Assembly (NCBI GenBank): GCA_027458945.1
Contig: DAIDOU010000101.1
Span: 1-54,479, forward strand
DNA length: 54,479 nt
Source of the DNA: Acidobacteriota bacterium
GTDB taxonomy: Bacteria; Acidobacteriota; Thermoanaerobaculia; Thermoanaerobaculales; Thermoanaerobaculaceae
Direction of reading: 5' to 3'
The position numbers and the translations under genes were made by a program. The notes under the pieces were generated by a model, which was not told the DNA's origin, searched no databases, and saw only the letters and a program-made list of their open reading frames with translations. Position 1 is the stretch's first letter. Each line of letters begins with the position of its first letter. This document shows positions 5,056-43,842 of the stretch, piece after piece.

Positions 5056-6210
5056 TCAGGACGGTCGCGGCGCGATGAACGGCAGCGGCGTCACCCGCGC
5101 ACGGAGCTTGCCCTCGCCCGGCACGAGCACGTCGAGCGCCGTCCCCTCGTTCCAGTGCGACCGATCCAGCATCGCGTAGCCGATGCCCTCGCCGAACGCG
5201 GGCGAGACGGACGCCGAGGTGACCTCGCCGACGCGTTGCTCCTCCGCGAACACCGGCCAGCCCTGCTCGCAGGCCGGCAACTGCATCGCTTCGATGAACA
5301 CGCCCATGAGCCGCCGGGTGACCCCGCGCTCGCGGATCGCGGCGAGCGCCCGACGACCGACGAAGTCGATGTCGCGATCCAGATGGACGTACTTCTCGAG
5401 ACCGATCTCGAACGGATTGTTGCCGTTGTCGAAGTCGTTCCCGTAGGACAGCAGTCCGCCCTCGATCCGCTCGGTATTGTGGGGCGCGCCCGGGCCCACG
5501 TCGAAATCGCGGCCGGCGTCGAAGCACGCGTCCCACAGGCGTTCGCCGAGCGCCCAGTCGTTCACGTAGATCTCGAAGCCGCCCTGCTTGCTCCATCCCG
5601 AGCGCGCGACCGTCAACGGATGCCCCTGCCACGCGAGCGTCGCGAAGCGGAAGAAGCGGATGCGGCGGACCTCGTCGCCGAACAGGCGCGCCACGAGGTC
5701 TTCGGCCTTCGGCCCCTGCACCGCGAGCGGCCAGACCGCGGGCTCACGGCAGTCGACGTCGAGGCGCAGGCCCGCGGCCAGCCCCTTCGCCCACAGCAGC
5801 ACGTCCGAATCCGCGATCGACAGCCAGAAGTGTTCGTCGGAGAATTTCAGCATCACCGGATCGTTCACCATCCCGCCCTGCTCGTCGACCAGCGGCACGT
5901 ACAGGCATTGACCGGGCACCGCGCGCGAGATGTCGCGGCAGGTCATCCGCTGGACCAGGCTCGCCGCGTCGCGCCCGCGGATCTGCACCTGGCGTTCGCA
6001 GCCGACGTCCCAGACCTGGACGTGGGTCTTCAGGTGGTGGTAATCCTCCACGTCGCCGCGGAACACCTCGGGCAGCAGCATGTGGTTGTAGACCGAGAAC
6101 ACCCGGCACCCGGCCGCCTCGACCCGCGCGGTGTAGGGCGTGCGCCGCATGCGCCGCCCCGCCGCGAGCAGCGGGGCGGACGTCGACACGATACTCGAGA
6201 TCTCTTGCAT
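5056..6210 (-). CDS. Aminomethyltransferase-family (GcvT/DmdA-like) folate-binding protein
   Basis: 384 aa from the ATG at 6208-6210 (MQEISS...). GcvT-like fold signatures (ARSGWSKQGGFEIY, C-terminal barrel). The longer ORF in the track has an implausible Arg-rich N-terminus. Confidence 0.75.
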   Translation of the reverse strand: MQEISSIVSTSAPLLAAGRRMRRTPYTARVEAAGCRVFSVYNHMLLPEVFRGDVEDYHHLKTHVQVWDVGCERQVQIRGRDAASLVQRMTCRDISRAVPGQCLYVPLVDEQGGMVNDPVMLKFSDEHFWLSIADSDVLLWAKGLAAGLRLDVDCREPAVWPLAVQGPKAEDLVARLFGDEVRRIRFFRFATLAWQGHPLTVARSGWSKQGGFEIYVNDWALGERLWDACFDAGRDFDVGPGAPHNTERIEGGLLSYGNDFDNGNNPFEIGLEKYVHLDRDIDFVGRRALAAIRERGVTRRLMGVFIEAMQLPACEQGWPVFAEEQRVGEVTSASVSPAFGEGIGYAMLDRSHWNEGTALDVLVPGEGKLRARVTPLPFIAPRPS

Positions 6211-6256
6211 GGCTGCGGTTCTCCGATGAGCCGGGCCCGGGCACTCGCCCGCGCCG

Positions 6257-8086
6257 TCATTCCAGCATCTGCGCCATTTTAGGCTTCGCCGCGACGTAGC
6301 GCCGGTGCACGTCGACATAGGTCGACTCGTAGAGCGCATCGACCACCGCCGGCGCCAGAAAGCCGCGCGCGAAGCCCGGCACGACCGGTTCGATCGAGAG
6401 TTCCGCCGAGCGCATCAGGTGCGCGAGCAGCATCCGCGGATCCTCGTTCCCGACCGCGATCCGGATCGTCGTTCGCGAGATCCCCGCGTCCGCGAGCGCC
6501 GCGTCGGAGAGCTCCGAGTGACTCGTGAGGGCCGGGCACAGCACGACGGTGTTGGTCTGCCCGAGGCTCACCTGCAGGCCGAACACCGGCTCGAGCAGGT
6601 CGAAGAACGCCCTGAACGCGTCGATCGGGATCCGCTCCTCGCCCTGCCCCGGCTCGAAGTCGATCGTGAACAGCGGTGCGGGCAGCGCGAGGAACAGGTT
6701 CTCGCGGCGCAAGCGGGCGTTCGGATGCCCGTCGATGGCCGAGCAGTTCACGCGAATCCGCGGATGGGCGGCGAGCGCATTCGCGAGCACGATCGTCGTG
6801 ATGCACTTCGACAGCATCCGCAGCTCGAGGGTGCGCATCCCGTTGATCACCTCGTACGCCTTGTCGGCGTCGAGGAACGCGCCCTTGATGTAATAGACGT
6901 TCCAGAACAGCGTTTCGTCCCAGCGCACCGTCGCCGTCCGCCCGCCGGCGCGGGTCACGGTCACGCTCGCGCCCTTCGGCAGGAACATGTCCTCGTTGCG
7001 GCCGATCACCACGCCGGCGGTCGTCGCGCCATAGCCCGCGAGGTCCTTCGTGTACGAATGGATCACGAAGTCGGGGCGCTCCGCGGGGTCGTCGCGCCGC
7101 AGCGTCGGCTGCAGGAACGGCGTGCCCACGGTCGCGTCGCAGATCACCGTGTGGCCGCGGGCGTGCGCGAGCCGGCAGATCCCCGGAACGTCGAGCACGT
7201 GGCCGTGCGGATTGCAGGGGCTCTCCAGGTACACGTAGATCCGGCGGTCGGCCGCGATCCGCTCCGCGTAGCGCGTGCCCGCCTCCTCGAGCGCGCGCTG
7301 CACGTCCGCGGCTTGGTAACCGTCGAACCAGTGGATCGCGACGTCCAGGTTGCTGCGCTTCCCGTACCAGTCGTGGAGCAGCTGATAGGCGCCCCCGTAG
7401 ATGTTGCGGCTGGCGACGATCACGTCCTGGTAGCCGACGAGGTGGGACAGGGTCGCATCGATCGCCGCCATCCCGGAGTTGAAGTTCCACGCGAGGTACT
7501 CCGCCGCGAGCGGTCCCGCCTCGACGTCGACGATGTGGTTCGCGAGGCTGATCGAGGTCGGGTTCAGCAGGCGCGAGTAGATCTCGTGCAGGAACTCCTT
7601 GCCCTTGAACGCATCCTCGACCCATTCCATGCACGCGTAGATGTAGGTCGCCGTGCGGGTGATCACCGGGGTCGCCGAGAAGATCGCGGTCACGTTGTCG
7701 AACAACGCATAAGGGCCGCGGCCGGCATCCGGTTGGGCGTGGCCGACCAGCGACTGGTAGGTCTTGCGCATCGGCGACTGGAGGTTGTCGAGCACCTTCG
7801 CGAGCTGGAAGCACGCGAACCGCTTCGCGTTGAACCATGCGATGCGGTCCTTGCGGTCGAGCTGCGAGAGCCGTCGCGCGGTGATCTCGATCAGCTCGTG
7901 CGTCGCGACGTTCGCCGCGTACAGGCTCCCGGTCAGCGCGCCGAGCGCCCGGCCGTGCTCGCTCGCCGGATCGATCCCGAAGTGTCCGAGCTGTTCGGCG
8001 ACGAGGGCGGCCGCGGTGTCCTCGTGCGTGGAGTTGCGGCGCGGGCTGAGCTCGCGCAACGGGTCGATCGTGTGGCTGTCGCTCAT
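6257..8086 (-). CDS. PLP-dependent Cys/Met-metabolism-family enzyme with a long N-terminal extension
   Basis: 609 aa from the ATG at 8084-8086, preceded by GGGAGG. The trans-sulfuration fold starts near YSRLLNPTSISL and has the SYTKDLAG lysine motif. About 150-200 extra N-terminal residues and an internal insertion. Confidence 0.8.
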   Translation of the reverse strand: MSDSHTIDPLRELSPRRNSTHEDTAAALVAEQLGHFGIDPASEHGRALGALTGSLYAANVATHELIEITARRLSQLDRKDRIAWFNAKRFACFQLAKVLDNLQSPMRKTYQSLVGHAQPDAGRGPYALFDNVTAIFSATPVITRTATYIYACMEWVEDAFKGKEFLHEIYSRLLNPTSISLANHIVDVEAGPLAAEYLAWNFNSGMAAIDATLSHLVGYQDVIVASRNIYGGAYQLLHDWYGKRSNLDVAIHWFDGYQAADVQRALEEAGTRYAERIAADRRIYVYLESPCNPHGHVLDVPGICRLAHARGHTVICDATVGTPFLQPTLRRDDPAERPDFVIHSYTKDLAGYGATTAGVVIGRNEDMFLPKGASVTVTRAGGRTATVRWDETLFWNVYYIKGAFLDADKAYEVINGMRTLELRMLSKCITTIVLANALAAHPRIRVNCSAIDGHPNARLRRENLFLALPAPLFTIDFEPGQGEERIPIDAFRAFFDLLEPVFGLQVSLGQTNTVVLCPALTSHSELSDAALADAGISRTTIRIAVGNEDPRMLLAHLMRSAELSIEPVVPGFARGFLAPAVVDALYESTYVDVHRRYVAAKPKMAQMLE

Positions 8087-27870: not shown

Positions 27871-29784
27871 TCAGACGTCGGACGTCGTCGCTTGGGCGAT
27901 GACAGCGGGGGGCGGGCCGTTGACGCCCTCCTCCTCGACCGGCTCGCGATCCCAGGCGCGGAGTCGGCGCAAGAGGCTGCGCTTCTTCTGCATGTGGTCC
28001 TGCATCCTGCCGAGGATTCCGGCCAGCATCCGGATGGCCTCGTCGATGTACGGTCCCTTGTTGAGCATGACGCACTCGGCGCGCTCAGCCATCGCCGCAT
28101 CGGTGACCTCCGCCCGGGAGGGGATGCCGGTCCTGGCCATCGAGTCCAGGACCTCAGTAGCCCAGATCACGGGCGCGTGGGCTGCCTCGCAAAGCCAGAG
28201 GATCTCCTCCTGGACCTCGGAGAGCCGCTCGAAGCCGACCTCCACCGCGAGGTCGCCGCGGGCGATCATGACGCCGATGCGGTCCCAGCGCATCGCCTCG
28301 AGGAGGATCTGCGGCAGCGCGTCGAACCCGGCGACGGTCTCGATCTTGAGCACGACGCCCAGACCGCCCTCCGGCACCTGGTCGAGGCGGTTCAGCAGGT
28401 CGCGCACGTCGTTCTCACTGCGGACGAAGGACATCTCCACGATGTCGGCGTGCCCTTTCACGAACTCGAGATCCTCGATGTCCTGCTCGGTCAGGGCGGA
28501 GAGCGAGAGCCGGGTGTCGGGGAGGTTGATCCCCTTCTCGGCACCGAGCTTGGTTCCCGCGACCCCTGCGGCACGCACCTCCACCGTCAGCGCGCCCGGC
28601 GAGACAGCGGTGATGACGCCGCTGATCTTGCCATCGTCGAGCAGCACCCTCTCGCCCGGCCTGGCGTCCGCGAAGACGTCGGGCAGCGTGCATCCGATCC
28701 GATGCAGGGCATCGGTCGTGGGCTCGACAGGACTGAGGTCGTCGGAGAGGACGATCCGGTCGCCGCGTCGCACCAGGATCGTTCGCTCGGCCTGCGGAAG
28801 CGGCCCGATGCGGGCGTTCCGGCTCTTCGTGCCGGACTTCTTCCCGTCGGACAGGATCATCCCGGGCACAAGGTAGGCGGTCTGCCGGAGCGAGACCAGG
28901 CAGCCCGCGGCGGTGACCCTCTCGACGGTCATGGTCCGGCGCGCTCCGCGGGCATCCACGGTCTGGATCCGCTCGCCGACGCGGCGGCTGCCCACCCAGG
29001 CGGGCTCCTGCAGCGGCACGGCCGGGACGGAGGGTTGTCCGGCGTCCGGGGGCGGGGTTCCCAGCCAGACCCGGGCGGGCTCGATCACCGCCCCGAGCGC
29101 GTCACGAGACGGCCGGACCTTGAGTACGGACGGGCCGGGCTGGATGGGACCGGTGCGCAGCTTGGGGCCGCCCAGGTCCATGGACACCAGGCACGGCCGG
29201 TGGGAGGAGGCCGTCCCGGCGCGGATGTTGGCGAGCATCGCCTCCCATGTCGCCGGATCGTCGTGAGCGCAATTGATCCGCGCGATGTCCATGCCGCTTT
29301 CCAGCATGTCGCGCACGAGCGGCGGGTCGGAGGCGGCCTCGGTCGGAAGCGTCACCATGATTCGCGTGACCCGGCCCGCCGGCTGCGGGCCGAGCAGGGC
29401 GACCGCATTGCGGGAGAGCAACTCCGCACCGTCCGGGACGGACGGTAGCGGCAGGTCGCTCTCGACCCGCCCGGTGAGACGGGCCAGTCTGCGAAGCAGC
29501 GCGTCGATGCTGACGAGCACATGCGACTCGGTCCTGCCGAGCGAGGAGAGGCCCTGATCGGAGAGGCGGGCCTGCAACTCGCGCATGTCGTGCCGGCGCA
29601 ACTCCACGTAGTGAATAAGGTTGGCGGCGCTGTAGCGGTGATTCGGTCGGACGGCCTCGATCTGCGCGGCATTCCGTACTTCGGCGTCGAGAATCGCCTG
29701 ACGGAGAAAGCTGACATCCGCGAACAGCGCGTCGAGTTCAGCGCTCTGCGCCGTCGCGGACCCCTCGGCTTCCTCGTTCGGCAC
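27871..29784 (-). CDS. Pyruvate-kinase-family protein with an N-terminal extension and no C-terminal regulatory domain
   Basis: 637 aa with a GTG start. PK barrel motifs (IARINCAHD, DLGGPKLRTG, KIETVAGF, MIARGDLAVEVG, NKGPY) after about 140 extra N-terminal residues. Confidence 0.75.
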   Translation of the reverse strand: MPNEEAEGSATAQSAELDALFADVSFLRQAILDAEVRNAAQIEAVRPNHRYSAANLIHYVELRRHDMRELQARLSDQGLSSLGRTESHVLVSIDALLRRLARLTGRVESDLPLPSVPDGAELLSRNAVALLGPQPAGRVTRIMVTLPTEAASDPPLVRDMLESGMDIARINCAHDDPATWEAMLANIRAGTASSHRPCLVSMDLGGPKLRTGPIQPGPSVLKVRPSRDALGAVIEPARVWLGTPPPDAGQPSVPAVPLQEPAWVGSRRVGERIQTVDARGARRTMTVERVTAAGCLVSLRQTAYLVPGMILSDGKKSGTKSRNARIGPLPQAERTILVRRGDRIVLSDDLSPVEPTTDALHRIGCTLPDVFADARPGERVLLDDGKISGVITAVSPGALTVEVRAAGVAGTKLGAEKGINLPDTRLSLSALTEQDIEDLEFVKGHADIVEMSFVRSENDVRDLLNRLDQVPEGGLGVVLKIETVAGFDALPQILLEAMRWDRIGVMIARGDLAVEVGFERLSEVQEEILWLCEAAHAPVIWATEVLDSMARTGIPSRAEVTDAAMAERAECVMLNKGPYIDEAIRMLAGILGRMQDHMQKKRSLLRRLRAWDREPVEEEGVNGPPPAVIAQATTSDV

Positions 29785-29859
29785 GGTCGATCACTCCATC
29801 TCGGCAGCAGCTGCGCTCGTTACCGCGAACGGCCTGCCCTGCGCGGGCGTCGGGCTGGT

Positions 29860-30036
29860 CTACTTGTGTGTCGTGTCGTGGCTCGCGGCGTGGTGGATCT
29901 TGTCCGCCGCCGTCTTCAGCGCGTTCTCCACCGCGTCGGTGGCCTCGTTGACCTTGCCCTCGACGGCGTCCACGACGTTGTCGGTGACCTTCTTGGCGCC
30001 TTCAGCACCTTTTTTGATGCTCTCTCCAGCGGTCAT
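29860..30036 (-). CDS. Small Lys/Ala/Asp-rich helical protein (stress-protein-like)
   Basis: 58 aa from the ATG at 30034-30036, with a strong GAAGGAG RBS 6 nt upstream. Confidence 0.5.
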   Translation of the reverse strand: MTAGESIKKGAEGAKKVTDNVVDAVEGKVNEATDAVENALKTAADKIHHAASHDTTHK

Positions 30037-30382
30037 GATGACTCCTTCATCTCGTTGTCCCGAATCTACGCTCCGGTGAAGACGGTCGCCAAGGACCAAA
30101 GTCCCAGAGGAAAAGATGGCGAATTCCGGTCCATGAAGCGATCGGCCGGCGACGTTGAGGCCGCTGGTCGAGTCCGACTCCGGTCTCTACCCGTTCCGGT
30201 TGCACCATCAGACCGGCCAGATGGGAATCGGTGTCGCCGGAAAAAGCTGATCGGCATCACGGTGCTGACGACCGCCACCGCGCTGATGTTCGCCGATACA
30301 CCAAACCTGCACCTTGGCCACCATGGTCGTGGCGGCTCATCGCGGCCGTTGCGCTCATGGTCGCCTACGAGCCTGGCTTGTA

Positions 30383-32371
30383 CTAGATCACGACGAAGCT
30401 CGCGCTCACTCCCGGCGTGAGCGGGGACGAGGTCGCCCTCAGGGTGTAGATTCCGGCCCGATCGATGCTGCACCCCGAGAAGGCGGCGACGCCCGACACC
30501 GCCGCCTTCGGGTTGCTCATGCAGTTGAGGGTCGCCCCAGCGGGATTCGTGATCGCCAGAGTGACCGATGCGGTGCTGGTCGTGGTGTTCCCGAACGCGT
30601 CGAGCACGGCGACGACCGGCTGGGTCGCGAAGGTGATCGACCTGACCGAGTTCGAGGGCGATGAAGTGAAGCTCAGCCGGGTCGCGGGGCCGGCGCTGAT
30701 GGTGAAGCTGGCGCTCGTCGCCGAACTCAGGCCGAAGGCCGTCGCGGTCAACGTGTAGGTCCCCGCCTTCCCGATAGCGCACCCGCTGAAGGTCGCGGTG
30801 CCGTTCACTGCCGCCTTCGGGTTCGCGGCGCAACTCAGCGTCGCCCCGGCCGGGGTGGTGATCGACAGGGTGATCGAGGTCGTGCCTGAGGTCGTGTTGC
30901 CGCTCGCATCCTGAATGGCGACGGTCGGCTGGATGTCGAACGCGGCGCCGCTGAGCGCCGACGAAGGCGAGGTGGTGAAGGCCAGCTTGCGCGGGGTCGT
31001 GAAGATGAAGAACGTGGAGCTGACCCCGCTCTGCAGGCTCGCCGAGCTGGCGGTGAGCACGTAGCTTCCGGCCTGATTGATCCGGCAGCCATCGAAGGCA
31101 GCGACTCCCGCGACAGCGTTCTTGGGGTTGCTCGTGCAGACGAGCTTCCCCTTGGCGATGGTCAAGGCGACCGGAGCGGTGCTGCTCGTGACCGTGTTGC
31201 CGCCGGCATCCTGCACGGCGACCACCGGCTGGGTGGTGAAGGCCACGTTGCGGGCCGCGTTGCTGGGACTCGTCGTGAAGACCAGCTTGCTCGCCGCGCC
31301 AACGGAGACGACGACGGTGCCGCTGATGGCCGAGGACAAACCCGGCGAGGTTGCCGTCAGGGTGTAGGTGCCGGCCTTGTCGATCGTGCAACCCGAGAAC
31401 CCGCCGGTTCCGGAGGCAGCGGCGACCGGGTTGGCACTGCAGCTGAGGGTGGCGCCCGCAGGGGTGCTGATGGACAGCGTCACCGGAGCGGTGCTGATGG
31501 TCGAGGAACCGCTCGAGGTCTGGATCGCGACCACCGGCTGGATGCCGAAGGCGATGCCGCCCGTCGAGTTGGACGGATTGGTCGTGAAGGCGAGTTTGGC
31601 CGGACTCAGCGCCGTGGAGGCGACCCAGTTGTTCGCTGCATTCGTCGTGCTCCCGGTGAACGCCGCGCTCGCGGCCGGGACGATCGGGGCGATGGCGACC
31701 ATTGCGGCGCAGAGAAAGAGAAACATCACCGACAGGGCGCTCTCCGGGCCGATGCGTCCGGCCAAAGTGCGGATGCCAGGGTACGGCGGCCGAGAGTGCC
31801 CGGATCGACGGTCGCCTCGTCCTCGGGTCTCGCCCCGCGACGCGAGGAACTCGATGACCAGCGCGAGCAGCGTCACCGCGATCCATGCGGCGAAGGGGAC
31901 GAGAAGGCCGTGCTGCAGCCAGTAGGCCGGAAGGCCGATCCACGGAATCAGCAGGCAGCTCACCGCGATGATGTCGGCTCGGGCCAGCGGCGCGCTGTCG
32001 ACGTCCCGGTTGGCGTCGCCCGCGGTGATCAGGCTGCCGTCAGGATTGATTCCGACGATGCGATGCAGCCGGATGCCCGGCTCCGCCGAGCCTGCGGGAG
32101 CCCGGAAGGTCACCACCCGACCGAGCGGAGTCGGCGCGTCCGCCGACAAAGGCTGGGAGAGCACGACGTCGCCGATGGCGATGTGCGGCATCATCGAGCC
32201 GCTCTGCACGACCGTTCCCGTGAGGCCGAAGGCCATCGGGAGTGTGGCGCAGGCGGCAAGCGCGACGAGGAAGACCAGGTAGCCGCGCGCGAGAACGCGC
32301 ACGACCAAGAGCCCCCAGTCCACGACGACTGCGCGACGCGTCTGAGGCTCCTGGGCCGGCTCCCCTGTCAT
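30383..32371 (-). CDS. SipW-type (ER/archaeal-type) signal peptidase I fused in-frame to a protein with a SipW-type signal peptide and four Ig-like repeats
   Basis: 662 aa with no stop between the modules. Peptidase: TM, SGSMMP, RLHRIV, GDANRDVD, TM (aa 1-177). Arg-rich linker. Second hydrophobic segment ending ASA|AFTGSTTNAANNW (aa 203-249). Four repeats of about 100 aa. Confidence 0.75.
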   Translation of the reverse strand: MTGEPAQEPQTRRAVVVDWGLLVVRVLARGYLVFLVALAACATLPMAFGLTGTVVQSGSMMPHIAIGDVVLSQPLSADAPTPLGRVVTFRAPAGSAEPGIRLHRIVGINPDGSLITAGDANRDVDSAPLARADIIAVSCLLIPWIGLPAYWLQHGLLVPFAAWIAVTLLALVIEFLASRGETRGRGDRRSGHSRPPYPGIRTLAGRIGPESALSVMFLFLCAAMVAIAPIVPAASAAFTGSTTNAANNWVASTALSPAKLAFTTNPSNSTGGIAFGIQPVVAIQTSSGSSTISTAPVTLSISTPAGATLSCSANPVAAASGTGGFSGCTIDKAGTYTLTATSPGLSSAISGTVVVSVGAASKLVFTTSPSNAARNVAFTTQPVVAVQDAGGNTVTSSTAPVALTIAKGKLVCTSNPKNAVAGVAAFDGCRINQAGSYVLTASSASLQSGVSSTFFIFTTPRKLAFTTSPSSALSGAAFDIQPTVAIQDASGNTTSGTTSITLSITTPAGATLSCAANPKAAVNGTATFSGCAIGKAGTYTLTATAFGLSSATSASFTISAGPATRLSFTSSPSNSVRSITFATQPVVAVLDAFGNTTTSTASVTLAITNPAGATLNCMSNPKAAVSGVAAFSGCSIDRAGIYTLRATSSPLTPGVSASFVVI
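30386..31597 (-). repeat. Four tandem repeats of about 300 bp, each encoding an Ig-like domain of about 100 aa
   Basis: Repeat starts: KLAFTTNPSN (aa 259), KLVFTTSPSN (aa 362), KLAFTTSPSS (aa 462), RLSFTSSPSN (aa 565). Each has QPVVA(I/V)(Q/L)D, two Cys (..L.C..NP.....G.A.F.GC.I...G.Y.L.A) and TYTLTA-like strands. Confidence 0.85.
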
Positions 32372-32472
32372 CGAGCTGCACCCTCACGCCGCCACGACCG
32401 CTACGGGGTGGACTGCAACTCCCAAACGACATCGGCACTTGCCGACTTCCCCTGAAGGGCGTCGATCTGGGC

Positions 32473-33006
32473 CTAGGTCAGAGCGGTGACGTCGAAGGTC
32501 CAGGTCGCCTTGTAGGTCTTGGTCTCGCGCGGGGTTCCCGCGGTAGCCCAGGGCAGAACGCCGGTCGTGTAGTTGTTGGTGCTCGCGCCGAGCGCGGCGA
32601 GCGACGTCGCCGGGAGGGTGCTGGACGGCGCGAATCCGGTGCAATCCGAGAAGCTGCCCCCGGCTCCGATCTGGATCGACATCGTGATGTTGTTCTCGAG
32701 GCCCTGGGCTCCCACGGTGTCGATGTACATCCGCACCTCGCCGGGAACGGTCGAATCGGAGGTGACGACCAGGCACTTCGAGCCGGTCTGCCCTGGAGTG
32801 ACTCCCGTCACGCGGAAGGCCGCAGCACCGAGGTCGTCATCGGAGAGGAGCACCGAGCCGGTCTCCCAGTTGTTGCCGGTGTTTCGGGTGGTCGCCGTGA
32901 AGGCGGCGCTGGAGCCTTGCCAGACGAGCAGCCCGGCAACCAGGATCGCGGTCGGACCGACGAGCAGCGTGGCGAGCCGACGAGTACGAGCTACGGACTT
33001 GTTCAT
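32473..33006 (-). CDS. TasA/camelysin-like secreted protein with a SipW-type signal peptide
   Basis: 177 aa. ATG at 33004-33006 with a GGGGG RBS. Signal MNKSVARTRRLATLLVGPTAILVAGLLVWQGSSA|AFTATTRNTGNNW, then a beta-rich body. Confidence 0.7.
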   Translation of the reverse strand: MNKSVARTRRLATLLVGPTAILVAGLLVWQGSSAAFTATTRNTGNNWETGSVLLSDDDLGAAAFRVTGVTPGQTGSKCLVVTSDSTVPGEVRMYIDTVGAQGLENNITMSIQIGAGGSFSDCTGFAPSSTLPATSLAALGASTNNYTTGVLPWATAGTPRETKTYKATWTFDVTALT

Positions 33007-33079
33007 TTCAAGTGCCCCCTTCGGGACTGGTATCGCACCGACGCCGATGTCAGTGGCGATGCGCGGAAGAGCGGGTGTG

Positions 33080-33094
33080 TCCGAATATTTCGGA
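33080..33094. promoter_or_regulatory. AT-centred palindrome upstream of the tasA-like gene (candidate operator)
   Basis: TCCGAA-TAT-TTCGGA, about 75-90 nt upstream of the ATG at 33006, inside a 278-nt intergenic region. Confidence 0.25.
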
Positions 33095-33284
33095 TGTCCC
33101 GGACCCCATAACTAGCGAGTCTCCGCCGTGATAAGCACCGGTGACAGAGCCGAAGGTCCCGTCCCCGACGCGGCCGACGATGCGGCGGACCAGCGGGCGC
33201 GCACCGATGAAGGCATGCGCTCTGCGCATGATCGAACCCCGGGGAGTCGGGCTCGTCATGTCCGGACGAGGATCACCCGCCCCA

Positions 33285-34178
33285 TCAGCGAGCGGTTGGC
33301 GGGGGCGCGTCGGGCGCGGCGAGGGAGGTGTGCGTGACGAGATAGGAGCCGGCGAGGACGAGGAGGAAGCCGGCGACCGTCCACAGGGTGATCTGCTCGC
33401 CGAGGACGATCGCACCGGCCGCGATCGCGATCGCCGGGTTGAGGTAGGTGACGGTGGTCGCGCGCACCGGCCCGATTTCGCGGATGAGCGCGAACAGGAC
33501 GACGAAGGCGATGGCGGTGCAGACGACGGCAAGGACGACGATCGACCACAGCGCCGGCGCGCTGGGCCAGGTGGTCGGCCAGGTGCCGCGGATCGCGACG
33601 AACGGGACGTAGAGGATCGCGGTGATGATGAGCGACCAGGTGGTGAGGCCGATGCTGGGCGCGTCGCCGAGCCAGCGGGCGGCGATGACCGGCGCGATCG
33701 CGTAGCCGACGACCGCGACGGAGACCTCGGCGACCGCACCCAGGTCGGAGCCCTGGACATCGAGGCCCACGAGAGCCGCGACGCCGACGAGGCCGATGCC
33801 GAAACCGGCCCAGTTCGAGGCGGTGAACCGCTCCTTGCGGCGCAGCACCAGGGCGACGAGCACACTCACCAGCGGCACCGCCGCGAGCAGCAGCCCGGTC
33901 ATCGAGGACGGCAGGCGCTCCTCGGAACTGGTGAGGAAGAACCACGGGAACACGATCTCGGCGACCGTGTAGGCCAGCAACGGCAACCAGTGCCGCCGCT
34001 CGAGGCGCAGTTCGCGCCGCCACACCGCGACCGGCAGCAGAAGCAGGGCGCCCAGAGCCGTTCGGCCGAGCACGACGACCTCCGGAGCGAGCTCGCCGAC
34101 CGCGATCTTGATGAACACGTACGGCACTCCCCACGCCACCGACAGCACCGCGAACAGGATCAGGCCTCGACGAGTCAC
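33285..34178 (-). CDS. EamA/DMT-family transporter
   Basis: 297 aa from the GTG at 34176-34178 (VTRRGLILFAVLSVAWG...). Ten hydrophobic helices forming two EamA halves. Confidence 0.8.
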   Translation of the reverse strand: MTRRGLILFAVLSVAWGVPYVFIKIAVGELAPEVVVLGRTALGALLLLPVAVWRRELRLERRHWLPLLAYTVAEIVFPWFFLTSSEERLPSSMTGLLLAAVPLVSVLVALVLRRKERFTASNWAGFGIGLVGVAALVGLDVQGSDLGAVAEVSVAVVGYAIAPVIAARWLGDAPSIGLTTWSLIITAILYVPFVAIRGTWPTTWPSAPALWSIVVLAVVCTAIAFVVLFALIREIGPVRATTVTYLNPAIAIAAGAIVLGEQITLWTVAGFLLVLAGSYLVTHTSLAAPDAPPPTAR

Positions 34179-42416: not shown

Positions 42417-43842
42417 TGTGATGTCGCAGGACATCGGTGACGGTTCTGTGTCAGGACATCGGTGACACTTCCGGGGTGTCTGGTGGTGACACTTCTGCCG
42501 TTCTGATTGGTGGGTGAGCAAAAACGAGCCTGTCGATCCCCGTGTCCGTCTTGCGATCGCCCAGTGGCCGCCGGACGCGCCACGAGGTGCGGTGACGACG
42601 TTCTGCGCTGAGCACTCGGTCTCGAGGAAGACGTTCTACGAGATCCGGAAACGCGTCGCCGCCGATGGGCCTGCGGCGGCGTTGGAGCCACGCTCAAGGC
42701 GTCCGAAGAGCAGCCCGACGACGATCGCCGATGAGGTGAAGCAGCAAGCACTCGGGGTGCGGGCCGCGCTGGAGCAGTCGGGGCTGGATCACGGTCCGAT
42801 CAGCGTGCATGAGAAGCTGCGCGCCCTCGGGATGACCGCCCCGTCCCCGGCGTCGCTGGCGCGGGTCTTCCGTGACGCAGGCGTCGCGAGGTTGGAGCCA
42901 AAGAAGAAGCCTCGGGCCGCGTGGCGCCGGTTCGTGTATCCGGCGCCGAACGCGTGCTGGCAGCTGGATGCGACCGAATATGTCCTGACCGGTGGGCGCA
43001 AGTGCGTGATCTTCCAACTCATCGATGATCACGCCCGCTACGCCGTCGCCTCCCACGTCGCGGGGTCAGAGACCGCCGAAGCGGCTGTGATGGTCGTGAA
43101 GAAGGGCATCAACGCGCACGGGGTCCCGCAGCGGCTTCTCAGCGACAACGGCCTCGCGCTCAACCCCTCCCGACGTGGGGTGATCGGTCAACTCACCGCG
43201 TATGTCACCTCTCTCGGAGTCGAGGCGATCACCGGGAAACCATACAAGCCGACCACGCAGGGCAAGAACGAACGCTTCCATCAGACCCTGTTCCGCTTCC
43301 TCGATAAGCAGCCTCTCGCCGAGACGATCGAGCAACTTCAGGAGCAGGTCGACCAGTTCGACATCATCTACAACACGCAGCGTCCGCACCAGGGCCTACC
43401 CGGCAGGATCACACCGCAGCAGGCATGGGAAGCGACACGGAAGGCCGACCCGCCCCGGCCTCGCCCCGACAACACGCAGCGGCCACTGCCACGGCACGCT
43501 CCCGCGACCACCATGCACGGTCGGGCCGCCGACGAGGTGCGTGTCGCACGGATCCGCGGCAACGGGACCGTCAAAGCACGCGGCGTGTTGTTCCAGACCA
43601 GCAGCACCCTCGCCGGGCAGAGCGCCTATGTCGTTTACGAACAGGACACCGTGCTGTTCTTCGACGACGCCGGCACCCTGATCATCGAACACTCCTGGCC
43701 CGATCCCGGCATCAGATACGTCGGCAACGGGAAACCCCGAGGCCGACGACCCCAAACCCTCTAACCGTCACCGATGTCCAGACACAGGAAGTGTCACCGA
43801 TGTCCAGATACAGTTTCGTCACCGATGCCCCGAGACATCACA
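42417..43842 (+). mobile_element. Intact IS481-family insertion sequence
   Basis: Terminal inverted repeats TGTGATGTC... (42417) and ...GACATCACA (43842). 2-3 subterminal copies of GGACATCGGTGAC at each end. Single transposase ORF. Flanked by a 15-bp direct repeat. Confidence 0.85.
42514..43764 (+). CDS. IS481-family transposase (DDE integrase core)
   Basis: 416 aa with a GTG start. N-terminal HTH. DDE core with CWQLDATEY, LSDNG, KPYKPTTQGKNERFHQTL. Confidence 0.9.
   Translation: MSKNEPVDPRVRLAIAQWPPDAPRGAVTTFCAEHSVSRKTFYEIRKRVAADGPAAALEPRSRRPKSSPTTIADEVKQQALGVRAALEQSGLDHGPISVHEKLRALGMTAPSPASLARVFRDAGVARLEPKKKPRAAWRRFVYPAPNACWQLDATEYVLTGGRKCVIFQLIDDHARYAVASHVAGSETAEAAVMVVKKGINAHGVPQRLLSDNGLALNPSRRGVIGQLTAYVTSLGVEAITGKPYKPTTQGKNERFHQTLFRFLDKQPLAETIEQLQEQVDQFDIIYNTQRPHQGLPGRITPQQAWEATRKADPPRPRPDNTQRPLPRHAPATTMHGRAADEVRVARIRGNGTVKARGVLFQTSSTLAGQSAYVVYEQDTVLFFDDAGTLIIEHSWPDPGIRYVGNGKPRGRRPQTL

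Follow-up and report, generated by a model that had tools for sequence, protein, structure and literature searches.

Can a signal peptidase and the protein it processes be made as a single chain, and if so, what would such a chain be for? The question is raised by a gene on contig DAIDOU010000101.1 (GenBank assembly GCA_027458945.1), of which positions 1 to 54,479 were analysed and are here called the window. In this gene, a signal peptidase of the type known from the endoplasmic reticulum (ER) and from archaea runs on into a predicted secreted module of immunoglobulin (Ig)-like repeats, just downstream of a gene with a TasA-like product. TasA-type fibres are a main scaffold of Gram-positive and archaeal biofilms, and how they are started and attached, including whether TapA and SipW cooperate, is under debate. 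The original prediction, made from the letters of the window, was of a SipW-type peptidase fused to its own substrate, the two together building a TasA-like fibre or surface layer. The fusion itself proves to be conserved across many genera beside the TasA-like gene, which points to a so far undescribed coupling of fibre initiation to the processing enzyme.

One continuous reading frame

As predicted, a single 662-aa open reading frame (ORF) leads from the peptidase into the secreted module without an internal stop. Along it lie, in this order, the signal peptidase, a linker, an internal signal peptide, an N-terminal strand and four Ig-like repeats. Three stretches stand out as hydrophobic in the hydropathy profile (about aa 19-55, 152-180 and 207-240), and the AlphaFold2 model of the fused protein -- with a mean predicted local distance difference test score (pLDDT) of 81 -- has helices at aa 12-47, 157-188 and 209-227.

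A six-frame scan of the whole window detected just one frame with the peptidase's Ser and His boxes, and just two sites where a hydrophobic stretch is followed by small-x-small↓AF[TS]...W (the arrow marks the predicted cut). One is in the fused gene, where the hydrophobic segment of the secreted module ends in ASA↓ and the strand begins at position 31663; the other is in the upstream gene, where the hallmark reads SSA↓ and the strand begins at 32904. Both had been read in this way from the start, and their co-occurrence in the two genes exceeds chance. The fused gene is 100% identical in independent ENA and Logan assemblies, and homologues covering about 100% of its product were found in Microbacterium, Cryobacterium, Subtercola, Lysinimonas and Pseudolysinimonas.

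Conservation of the fusion

Comparison of orthologous loci, the test that the original prediction had set for itself in advance, turned up no genuine stop codon or frameshift between the two parts. The fused layout is present in 64 of the 120 best database homologues, which range from 553 to 1112 aa: the Ser box stands near residue 57, and after it come a linker, a hydrophobic segment, the sequence small-x-small↓A-F-[TS]...N-x-W, and the repeats. Their only database labels are "S26 family signal peptidase" and "hypothetical protein", under which the substrate half has been overlooked. At the genome level, a continuous fused ORF was found in 68 of 75 species-representative loci from at least 19 genera, in a scan that was built on seven sequences and is thereby biased towards Micrococcales. 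These loci belong to the Microbacteriaceae, the Micrococcaceae, Cellulomonas and the Kineosporiaceae (Arthrobacter, Paenarthrobacter, Pseudarthrobacter, Paeniglutamicibacter, Glutamicibacter, Kocuria, Specibacter, Cryobacterium, Microbacterium, Curtobacterium, Lysinimonas, Pseudolysinimonas, Glaciihabitans, Lacisediminihabitans, Gryllotalpicola, Labedella, Planctomonas, Cellulomonas and a Kineosporiaceae metagenome-assembled genome, MAG), and they include complete genomes such as those of Glutamicibacter arilaitensis (CP084994) and Arthrobacter sp. (CP193752).

The seven loci without a continuous fusion include two long-read MAGs whose neighbouring genes are frame-broken as well, one locus cut by a contig end, and one (L018) with no readable peptidase frame; a stand-alone SipW in an Oscillospiraceae genome is a non-fused exception. 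The apparent splits at L001/L043 and L029 lie in indel-ridden assemblies, with the TasA-like gene read as 153 + 65 aa and the pyruvate kinase gene as 466 + 134 aa. A 508-aa homologue (P0120) was considered as a natural split version and rejected, its contig having three adjacent frame-broken genes. Two loci appear decayed: in Arthrobacter echini (L076, 4878-5492) the fused ORF stops just past the AFT strand and the TasA-like frame is short, and all that survives of it in Nonomuraea (L080, 4962-5240) is a 93-aa piece of the peptidase.

When the peptidase domain alone was used for an exhaustive search, 5665 related cluster representatives were found. Among the nearest 147 clusters (50% identity), 106 exceed 250 aa in length and start with the peptidase, and a rule-based detector found the internal signal and the AF[TS]...W site in 83 of these, against 21 in a reversed-tail control; the detector has about 20% false positives, which makes the 83 of 106 approximate. 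It was used instead of a 24-residue hidden Markov model of the cleavage and strand segment, which was too narrow and recovered 33 of the 147 representatives. Because the fusion is continuous in homologues, in genome loci and in independent assemblies, a missed stop or frameshift is excluded, and it is virtually certain that the fusion is genuine and under selection. The features of the two genes are listed in Table 1.

Table 1. Position of the fused gene, the TasA-like gene and their parts (window coordinates)
Feature	Position	Strand	Remarks
Fused gene	30383..32371	-	662 aa, single ORF without internal stop; stop codon 30383-30385
Peptidase module, aa 1-177	31841..32371	-	NCBIfam TIGR02228 sigpep_I_arch (E 3.3e-11), SEC11 profile match, hydropathy, AlphaFold2
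Ser box SGSMMP, aa 57-62, predicted nucleophile Ser59	32186..32203	-	aligns with SEC11 SGSMEP
His box, H103-R104	32060..32065	-	aligns with HR of SEC11A/C
Asp box GDANRDVD, aa 118-125	31997..32020	-	aligns with SEC11 GDNN..DD
Basic linker, aa 178-212, putatively cytoplasmic, doubling as signal n-region	31736..31840	-	8 Arg/Lys, net charge +5
Internal signal h- and c-regions, aa 213-236, ending A-S-A	31664..31735	-	hydropathy peak 2.6; AlphaFold2 helix 209-227
N-terminal strand of mature passenger, AFTGSTTNAANNW, aa 237-249, putative donor strand	31625..31663	-	W249 invariant, F238 nearly invariant
Four tandem Ig-like repeats, aa 259-361, 362-461, 462-564, 565-662	30386..31597	-	repeat boundaries, Cys positions, AlphaFold2, Foldseek
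TasA-like gene, putative major fibre subunit	32473..33006	-	177 aa as it stands; about 100 nt upstream of the fused gene
TasA-like signal peptide, aa 1-34	32905-33006	-	ends ...QGSSA↓
TasA-like N-terminal strand, AFTATTRNTGNNW	32866-32904	-	directly after QGSSA↓
Premature in-frame TAG and 23 intact codons, AQIDALQGKSASADVVWELQSTP	TAG 32473-32475; codons 32404-32472	-	alignment with 10 orthologues
Ancestral stop of TasA-like gene	32401-32403	-	after the 23 intact codons

The peptidase module

The module has a first transmembrane helix at about aa 20-47, a predicted extracytoplasmic catalytic domain, and a second transmembrane helix at about aa 155-177; AlphaFold2 models it as a beta domain (aa 51-142) held between helices 12-47 and 157-188. 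By hydropathy and by model, a catalytic domain lying between N- and C-terminal transmembrane helices is the topology of the SipW type. Ser, His and Asp boxes (SGSMxP, HR and GDxN...D) stand in place of a Ser-Lys dyad, the His being the general base in ER-type signal peptidases. Residues S57, S59, M60, P62, H103, R104, G118, D119, A120, N121 and D125 are invariant among 32 fused homologues and 22 distant ones.

A family profile of 22 diverse members matched human SEC11C (7P2Q, E 1.6e-15) and SEC11A (7P2P, E 3.5e-15) in the PDB with the catalytic boxes in register, while LepB-type structures were reached only at E ~0.1. The profile was needed because a PDB search with the domain as a single sequence returned only noise (a streptococcal R4 protein and FabH). 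As a single sequence, the module also falls under the cut-off of Pfam Peptidase_S26 (PF10502; 19.8 vs 22.9), and with the SipW equivalog NF046067 it scores 30.7 bits against a cut-off of 190. On sequence grounds, then, it is a signal peptidase I of the ER/archaeal type (S26B), in a divergent subfamily, with predicted cleavage activity. The proposed "SipW-type" holds as far as ER/archaeal type goes (SEC11 profile, E ~1e-15) and fails as a claim of SipW orthology: the enzyme is, by its predicted features, SipW-like in its working but no orthologue of Bacillus SipW.

The internal signal and its predicted cleavage site

The linker proved as Arg-rich as had been reported (Table 1). Its residues 189-210 have a pLDDT below 50, and among homologues it varies from 19 to 83 aa with zero invariant residues, always staying in frame. 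The third hydrophobic segment, behind it, ends in ...PAASA↓AFTGSTTNAANNW, with the cut predicted between A236 and A237; small-x-small followed by A/G-F/Y-T/S is kept in 64 of 64 fused homologues. The positive charge of the linker and this conserved small-x-small site both fit the inside-outside topology that had been proposed for the chain. In the monomer model the region of the strand (aa 235-254) is disordered (pLDDT < 50).

Signal peptidases read mainly positions -3 and -1 and the first few primed positions. For the passenger -- the part of the chain beyond the internal signal -- export and cleavage at ASA↓AF are likely. TasA, which has Phe at position P2', is cleaved poorly by LepB and has a SipW dedicated to it (PMC10269814).

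The passenger

Each of the four repeats is about 100 aa long, carries a pair of Cys residues 17 residues apart and is modelled with a pLDDT above 90. Foldseek matched them to titin, to the S-layer proteins EA1, SbsB, SbsC and Sap, and to invasin and FdeC; the Pfam matches, to Invasin_D3 and CarboxypepD_reg, are weak. At the DNA level the repeats have diverged too far for a tandem repeat finder, which missed them. No LPXTG, SLH or other anchor motif was found in the passenger, nor did the fused protein match any TapA/YqxM model in Pfam or NCBIfam at E values up to 1, and its resemblance to TapA is architectural only.

What the passenger shares with the TasA-like protein is confined to its beginning. 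BLASTP of a TasA-like orthologue against it aligned 34 aa (41% identity, E 3e-4) covering nothing beyond the signal h/c-region and the strand, and of the mature passenger only the 13-residue N-terminal strand can be aligned, with a mean of 7 of the 13 positions identical over 53 loci. The passenger has neither similarity to the body of the TasA-like protein nor an acceptor domain of the TasA type, and it would be unable to accept a strand. Because a donor-like strand is followed by complete Ig domains with no such acceptor, it looks less like a fibre building block and more like an initiator or tip of the TapA kind; the specific role of donor-strand initiator or tip is offered tentatively, at a little short of even chances. 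Of the peptidase-substrate polyprotein that was originally thought to build a fibre, the conserved fusion therefore stands, whereas the passenger as building block gives way to the likelier initiator or tip.

Relatives carry quite different passengers behind the same front: Ice_binding-like (E 2e-31), Laminin_G_3 (E 2e-41), Big_7/Big_13 and CBM_2 domains, and a weak fn3 match under the Pfam cut-off (P0248, P0250, P0277, P0299 and P0340 represent the Ice_binding-like, Laminin_G_3, CBM_2 and fn3 types). Peptidase, linker, signal and strand are thus the constant part and a binding-type module the variable one, and this implies that domains have been exchanged repeatedly behind an unchanging N-terminal unit. 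Passengers so interchangeable suggest that these bacteria show varied binding domains on fibres, which would be relevant to surface colonisation and possibly to the engineering of protein display.

Some further observations concern the repeat proteins. The repeat count is labile, as a comparison with P0003-P0030 showed: against four repeats in the 662 aa of the window protein, its nearest relatives have about five in about 765 aa, and Cryobacterium proteins reach 970-1112 aa. Micrococcaceae passengers of the Big_7/Big_13 type share a conserved extreme C-terminus, ...E[ST]G[AST]LDRDF, with the variants ...GAADLEF and ...GAADRQF; the motif or a variant of it was seen in Arthrobacter alpinus (L002, 6654-9206) and in P0268, P0320, P0380, L029 and L079. 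Unfused repeat proteins (P0048, P0051, P0052, P0055, P0064, P0066, P0073, P0092, P0105 and P0110) have a different conserved N-terminus, in which a hydrophobic segment is followed by A-W-A-Y-W-T/S..G.G....TG.L..P and then by an fn3-like "V.W....G....GY.V.R"; this start may represent another class of signal or sorting motif.

The TasA-like neighbour

The upstream protein has 237 homologues, almost all of about 200 aa and in no curated family. Its signal ends in SSA↓AFTATTRNTGNNW, a SipW-cognate type with an aromatic residue at P2', and this is conserved in orthologues. A profile of the family found nothing significant among PDB sequences, and TasA was reached by fold comparison only: the AlphaFold2 model of an 80%-identical orthologue (P0122, pLDDT 75) had as its best PDB matches B. 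subtilis TasA 5OF2/5OF1 (E 5.5e-5, probability 1.0, template modelling score 0.43-0.45). The description of this neighbour as TasA/camelysin-like can be kept for the jelly-roll beta-sandwich fold, with TasA 5OF2 the best match, though not for membership in a Pfam or NCBIfam family; "TasA-like" is valid for fold, signal type and context, and not for sequence family.

In 58 of 64 fused loci the gene immediately precedes the fused gene on the same strand; the other six have no TasA-like gene within 2.6 kb upstream. In a Pseudolysinimonas MAG (L012), two tandem TasA-like genes, at about 3778 and 4383, stand ahead of the fused gene; by analogy with CalY1/CalY2 of B. cereus, they could be a major and a minor subunit.

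In the window, the TasA-like frame is cut short by an in-frame TAG where all ten aligned orthologues of about 200 aa have Gln. The 23 intact codons beyond it, AQIDALQGKSASADVVWELQSTP, include those of the conserved terminal strand. Two independent assemblies (L082 and L083, both 100% identical to the window) carry this TAG, too, and it is therefore taken as real, either a recent nonsense change in this lineage (the gene being on its way to a pseudogene) or possibly a site of read-through. Because the gene of the putative major subunit has this premature stop, the fibre system may be impaired in the organism of the window.

Neighbourhood of the cassette

Downstream of the two genes lies a pyruvate-kinase-like gene (27871-29784), as it does in the related MAG L001/L043. 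In Arthrobacter, Frondihabitans and Subtercola the two-gene cassette has other, unrelated genes around it, and thus seems to travel as one piece. In the assembly of another sample (L082), the DNA just downstream of the fused gene runs straight into a transposase region of the rve type: positions 5939-6534 of that assembly equal 42417-43012 of the window, where the transposase region spans 42417-43764, and the junction falls near window position 30068. Either that population has an insertion sequence copy at this point, or a repeat led the assembler to jump. No promoter or terminator was found in a scan of positions 29700-33400, for which the sigma-70 consensus is uninformative in a GC-rich genome.

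A model for the cassette and its alternatives

The reading we favour, with a probability of roughly 55%, is that the two genes form a fibre cassette of the TasA/SipW/TapA kind, in which a single polypeptide contains both the dedicated peptidase and a minor protein that acts as initiator or tip; the upstream TasA-like gene would then be the likely major subunit. The first transmembrane helix would run from inside to outside, the catalytic domain would face outward, and the second helix would bring the chain back to the cytoplasm. The Arg-rich linker, kept inside, would act as n-region for the third hydrophobic segment, which would re-export the chain in such a way that ASA↓AF lands at the outer face of the membrane beside a peptidase active site. 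A cut there, by its own or a neighbouring peptidase domain, would free a 426-aa protein with AFTGSTTNAANNW at its N-terminus. By analogy with TapA and with archaeal AbpB, this unstructured strand may enter the groove of the first TasA-like subunit and so nucleate or cap a donor-strand-exchange fibre, the Ig repeats forming a stalk or an adhesin. Fusion would ensure a 1:1 output of two low-abundance components and would place the initiator where TasA-like subunits are processed.

A more daring form of this model, which is possible though doubtful, is a self-priming fibre machine, in which the peptidase would cut its own passenger in cis and the strand would capture the first TasA-like subunit at the same active site, each peptidase seeding one fibre with a lineage-specific tip adhesin (Ig, LamG lectin, ice-binding-like or CBM2). 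Secretion, processing and donor-strand nucleation would in that case be coupled both physically and stoichiometrically, and the fusion would be Rosetta-stone evidence for a SipW-TapA complex in Bacillus.

Several points weigh against the cassette model. All of its steps beyond the single-ORF chain -- cleavage, in cis or in trans, the fibre and the interaction -- are what we infer. As a single sequence, the peptidase is under the TIGR02228 cut-off (43.3 vs 51.85 bits). The similarity of the neighbour to the TasA fold is modest, with CUB domains close behind; Pfam Peptidase_M73 (PF12389) is matched by two of 38 family members at E 0.03, the window protein not among them, and NCBIfam TIGR04089 exp_by_SipW_III by one of 38 (E 1.3e-3). 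The window copy of the TasA-like gene is without its last 23 conserved residues. S-layer proteins are among the Foldseek matches of the passenger, and the window has a GGAG...GTG-ATG just ahead of the internal hydrophobic segment. Finally, the strands of passenger and TasA-like protein co-vary only weakly within genomes (7.08 vs 6.90 of 13 positions identical, with 361 of 5000 shuffles reaching 7.08; p ~0.07 overall, 0.02 and 0.10 within clades), and the co-variation was not used as support; the similarity of the strands could reflect recognition by the peptidase rather than a donor-strand function.

Were AFT...N-x-W a recognition or exit determinant of the peptidase, the passenger might be a secreted or wall adhesin, or an S-layer-like protein, working outside any TasA-like fibre. 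The matches to EA1, SbsB, Sap, SbsC, invasin and FdeC would suit such a protein, as would passengers made of typical binding modules (LamG, CBM2, ice-binding-like), the weak co-variation, and the six fused loci that lack a nearby TasA-like gene. We nevertheless regard it as unlikely, given that in the remaining 58 loci the TasA-like gene is immediately upstream, that the passenger has none of the anchors looked for, that recognition by a peptidase is not expected to conserve 13 residues ending in an invariant Trp, and that TapA and TasA have the same kind of N-terminal similarity, which in their case is a donor strand (PMC9674648). The chain might also stay uncut, its third hydrophobic segment being a permanent transmembrane anchor and the repeats an accessory or stalk domain of the peptidase, in the manner of the accessory subunits of the eukaryotic signal peptidase complex or of the signal peptidases joined to DUF5305; such a domain might recruit substrates or measure the cell wall. 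Fusions of signal peptidase I with the extracellular beta-sandwich accessory DUF5305 have been reported (10.64898/2026.01.04.697558), AlphaFold2 keeps a helix at aa 209-227, and processing of the passenger is itself predicted. Yet a plain anchor would have no need of a conserved small-x-small↓A-F-[TS] site or of the 13-residue motif of the neighbouring protein, the segment after the site is disordered where a folded juxtamembrane domain would be looked for, and passengers that are interchangeable binding domains are unlike a fixed accessory subunit, all of which makes an uncleaved chain improbable.

The other two alternatives would do away with the single chain altogether. If the repeat protein were started internally, at the TTG near 31765 or the GTG/ATG near 31727, there would be two separate proteins and the long ORF would be incidental, or a choice of annotation. 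The window does have GGAGAG about 10 nt upstream of an in-frame GTG-ATG (V216/M217), but a Shine-Dalgarno sequence and start codon ahead of the internal signal occur in only six of 62 loci, three of them from this strain, compared with 2% of control windows and 34% of true starts. A product begun at M217 would be without a charged n-region (MFLFLCAAMV...), and independent genes would not hold one frame over linkers of 19-83 aa in 68 of 75 species; internal initiation is thus very improbable. That a sequencing or assembly error erased a stop or frameshift between two genes could draw on the splits at L001/L043 and L029, but neighbouring genes are broken in those assemblies too, and with the identity of the window gene in the ENA and Logan assemblies and the fusions in CP084994 and CP193752 this explanation is effectively refuted.

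Comparison with known systems

The components and their logic -- a SipW-type peptidase, a TasA-like subunit, a TapA-like initiator -- are already known, and what appears to be new is that the peptidase is fused to a substrate of its own. The original prediction knew of no characterised fused version, and none was found in the open-access literature searched, nor was any description of a peptidase-substrate fusion, of its breadth in Micrococcales or of its modular passengers. A natural peptidase/TapA-like fusion, conserved in soil and cold-adapted actinobacteria such as Arthrobacter, Microbacterium, Cryobacterium and their relatives, would be independent evolutionary evidence for the partnership of TapA and SipW, and a single gene with one catalytic serine would offer a simple handle on processing in cis or in trans and on fibre nucleation.

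Among the closest counterparts is the tapA-sipW-tasA operon of B. subtilis, where a dedicated ER/archaeal-type peptidase likewise accompanies a minor protein and a fibre subunit with a jelly-roll fold. TasA forms polymers in which the N-terminal strand of one subunit (residues 28-38) is inserted into the next (PMC9674648). TapA consists of an unstructured N-terminal strand and a stable disulphide-bonded Ig domain, and because this domain cannot accept a strand, TapA is found at the filament start only (PMC10151520). The minor protein here is predicted to have the build described for TapA (PMC10151520, PMC9674648), a strand like that of the major subunit followed by stable disulphide-bonded Ig domains, and the A↓AF-type cleavage site with Phe at P2' is that of Bacillus TasA (PMC10269814). 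In Bacillus, TapA is about as scarce as SipW, and the two are translationally coupled, the tapA stop codon overlapping the sipW start (PMC10151520); here, one polypeptide comprises both the peptidase, at its N-terminus, and the TapA-like protein, and the tasA-like gene comes before the fusion. The present proteins differ further in lying, by sequence, outside the SipW equivalog, Peptidase_M73 and any TapA model, in having four to eight Ig repeats or quite different domains as passengers where TapA has one Ig domain, and in their host, a high-GC actinobacterium.

The loci of the archaeal bundling pili (AbpA/AbpB) and the AbpX/Tafi loci also combine a major donor-strand subunit with a variable tip or initiator that has a proposed first strand and adhesin domains; AbpB has been proposed to act as initiator and to carry adhesin domains at its distal end (PMC9245690). 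In TasA-superfamily loci, tip proteins of variable kind and a signal peptidase I are often encoded (10.64898/2026.01.04.697558), the latter of the TIGR02228 type (PMC9245690; 10.64898/2026.01.04.697558). In those loci, however, the tip proteins are separate genes, some of the peptidases have ten transmembrane helices, and the only signal peptidase fusion mentioned is with the DUF5305 accessory and not with a substrate. Eukaryotic SEC11 and archaeal signal peptidase I (S26B) align with the present enzyme in their Ser-His-Asp boxes and overall domain; the protein described here differs in being bacterial, in its second transmembrane helix and in its 480-aa C-terminal extension with a substrate site of its own. 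A looser analogy may be drawn with autotransporters (type V secretion) and other self-processing precursors, which put the export or processing machinery and a passenger into one chain and release the passenger by cleavage. Their folds and their membrane are unrelated, the machinery here being a signal peptidase in the cytoplasmic membrane of a monoderm, with export presumably by Sec/YidC.

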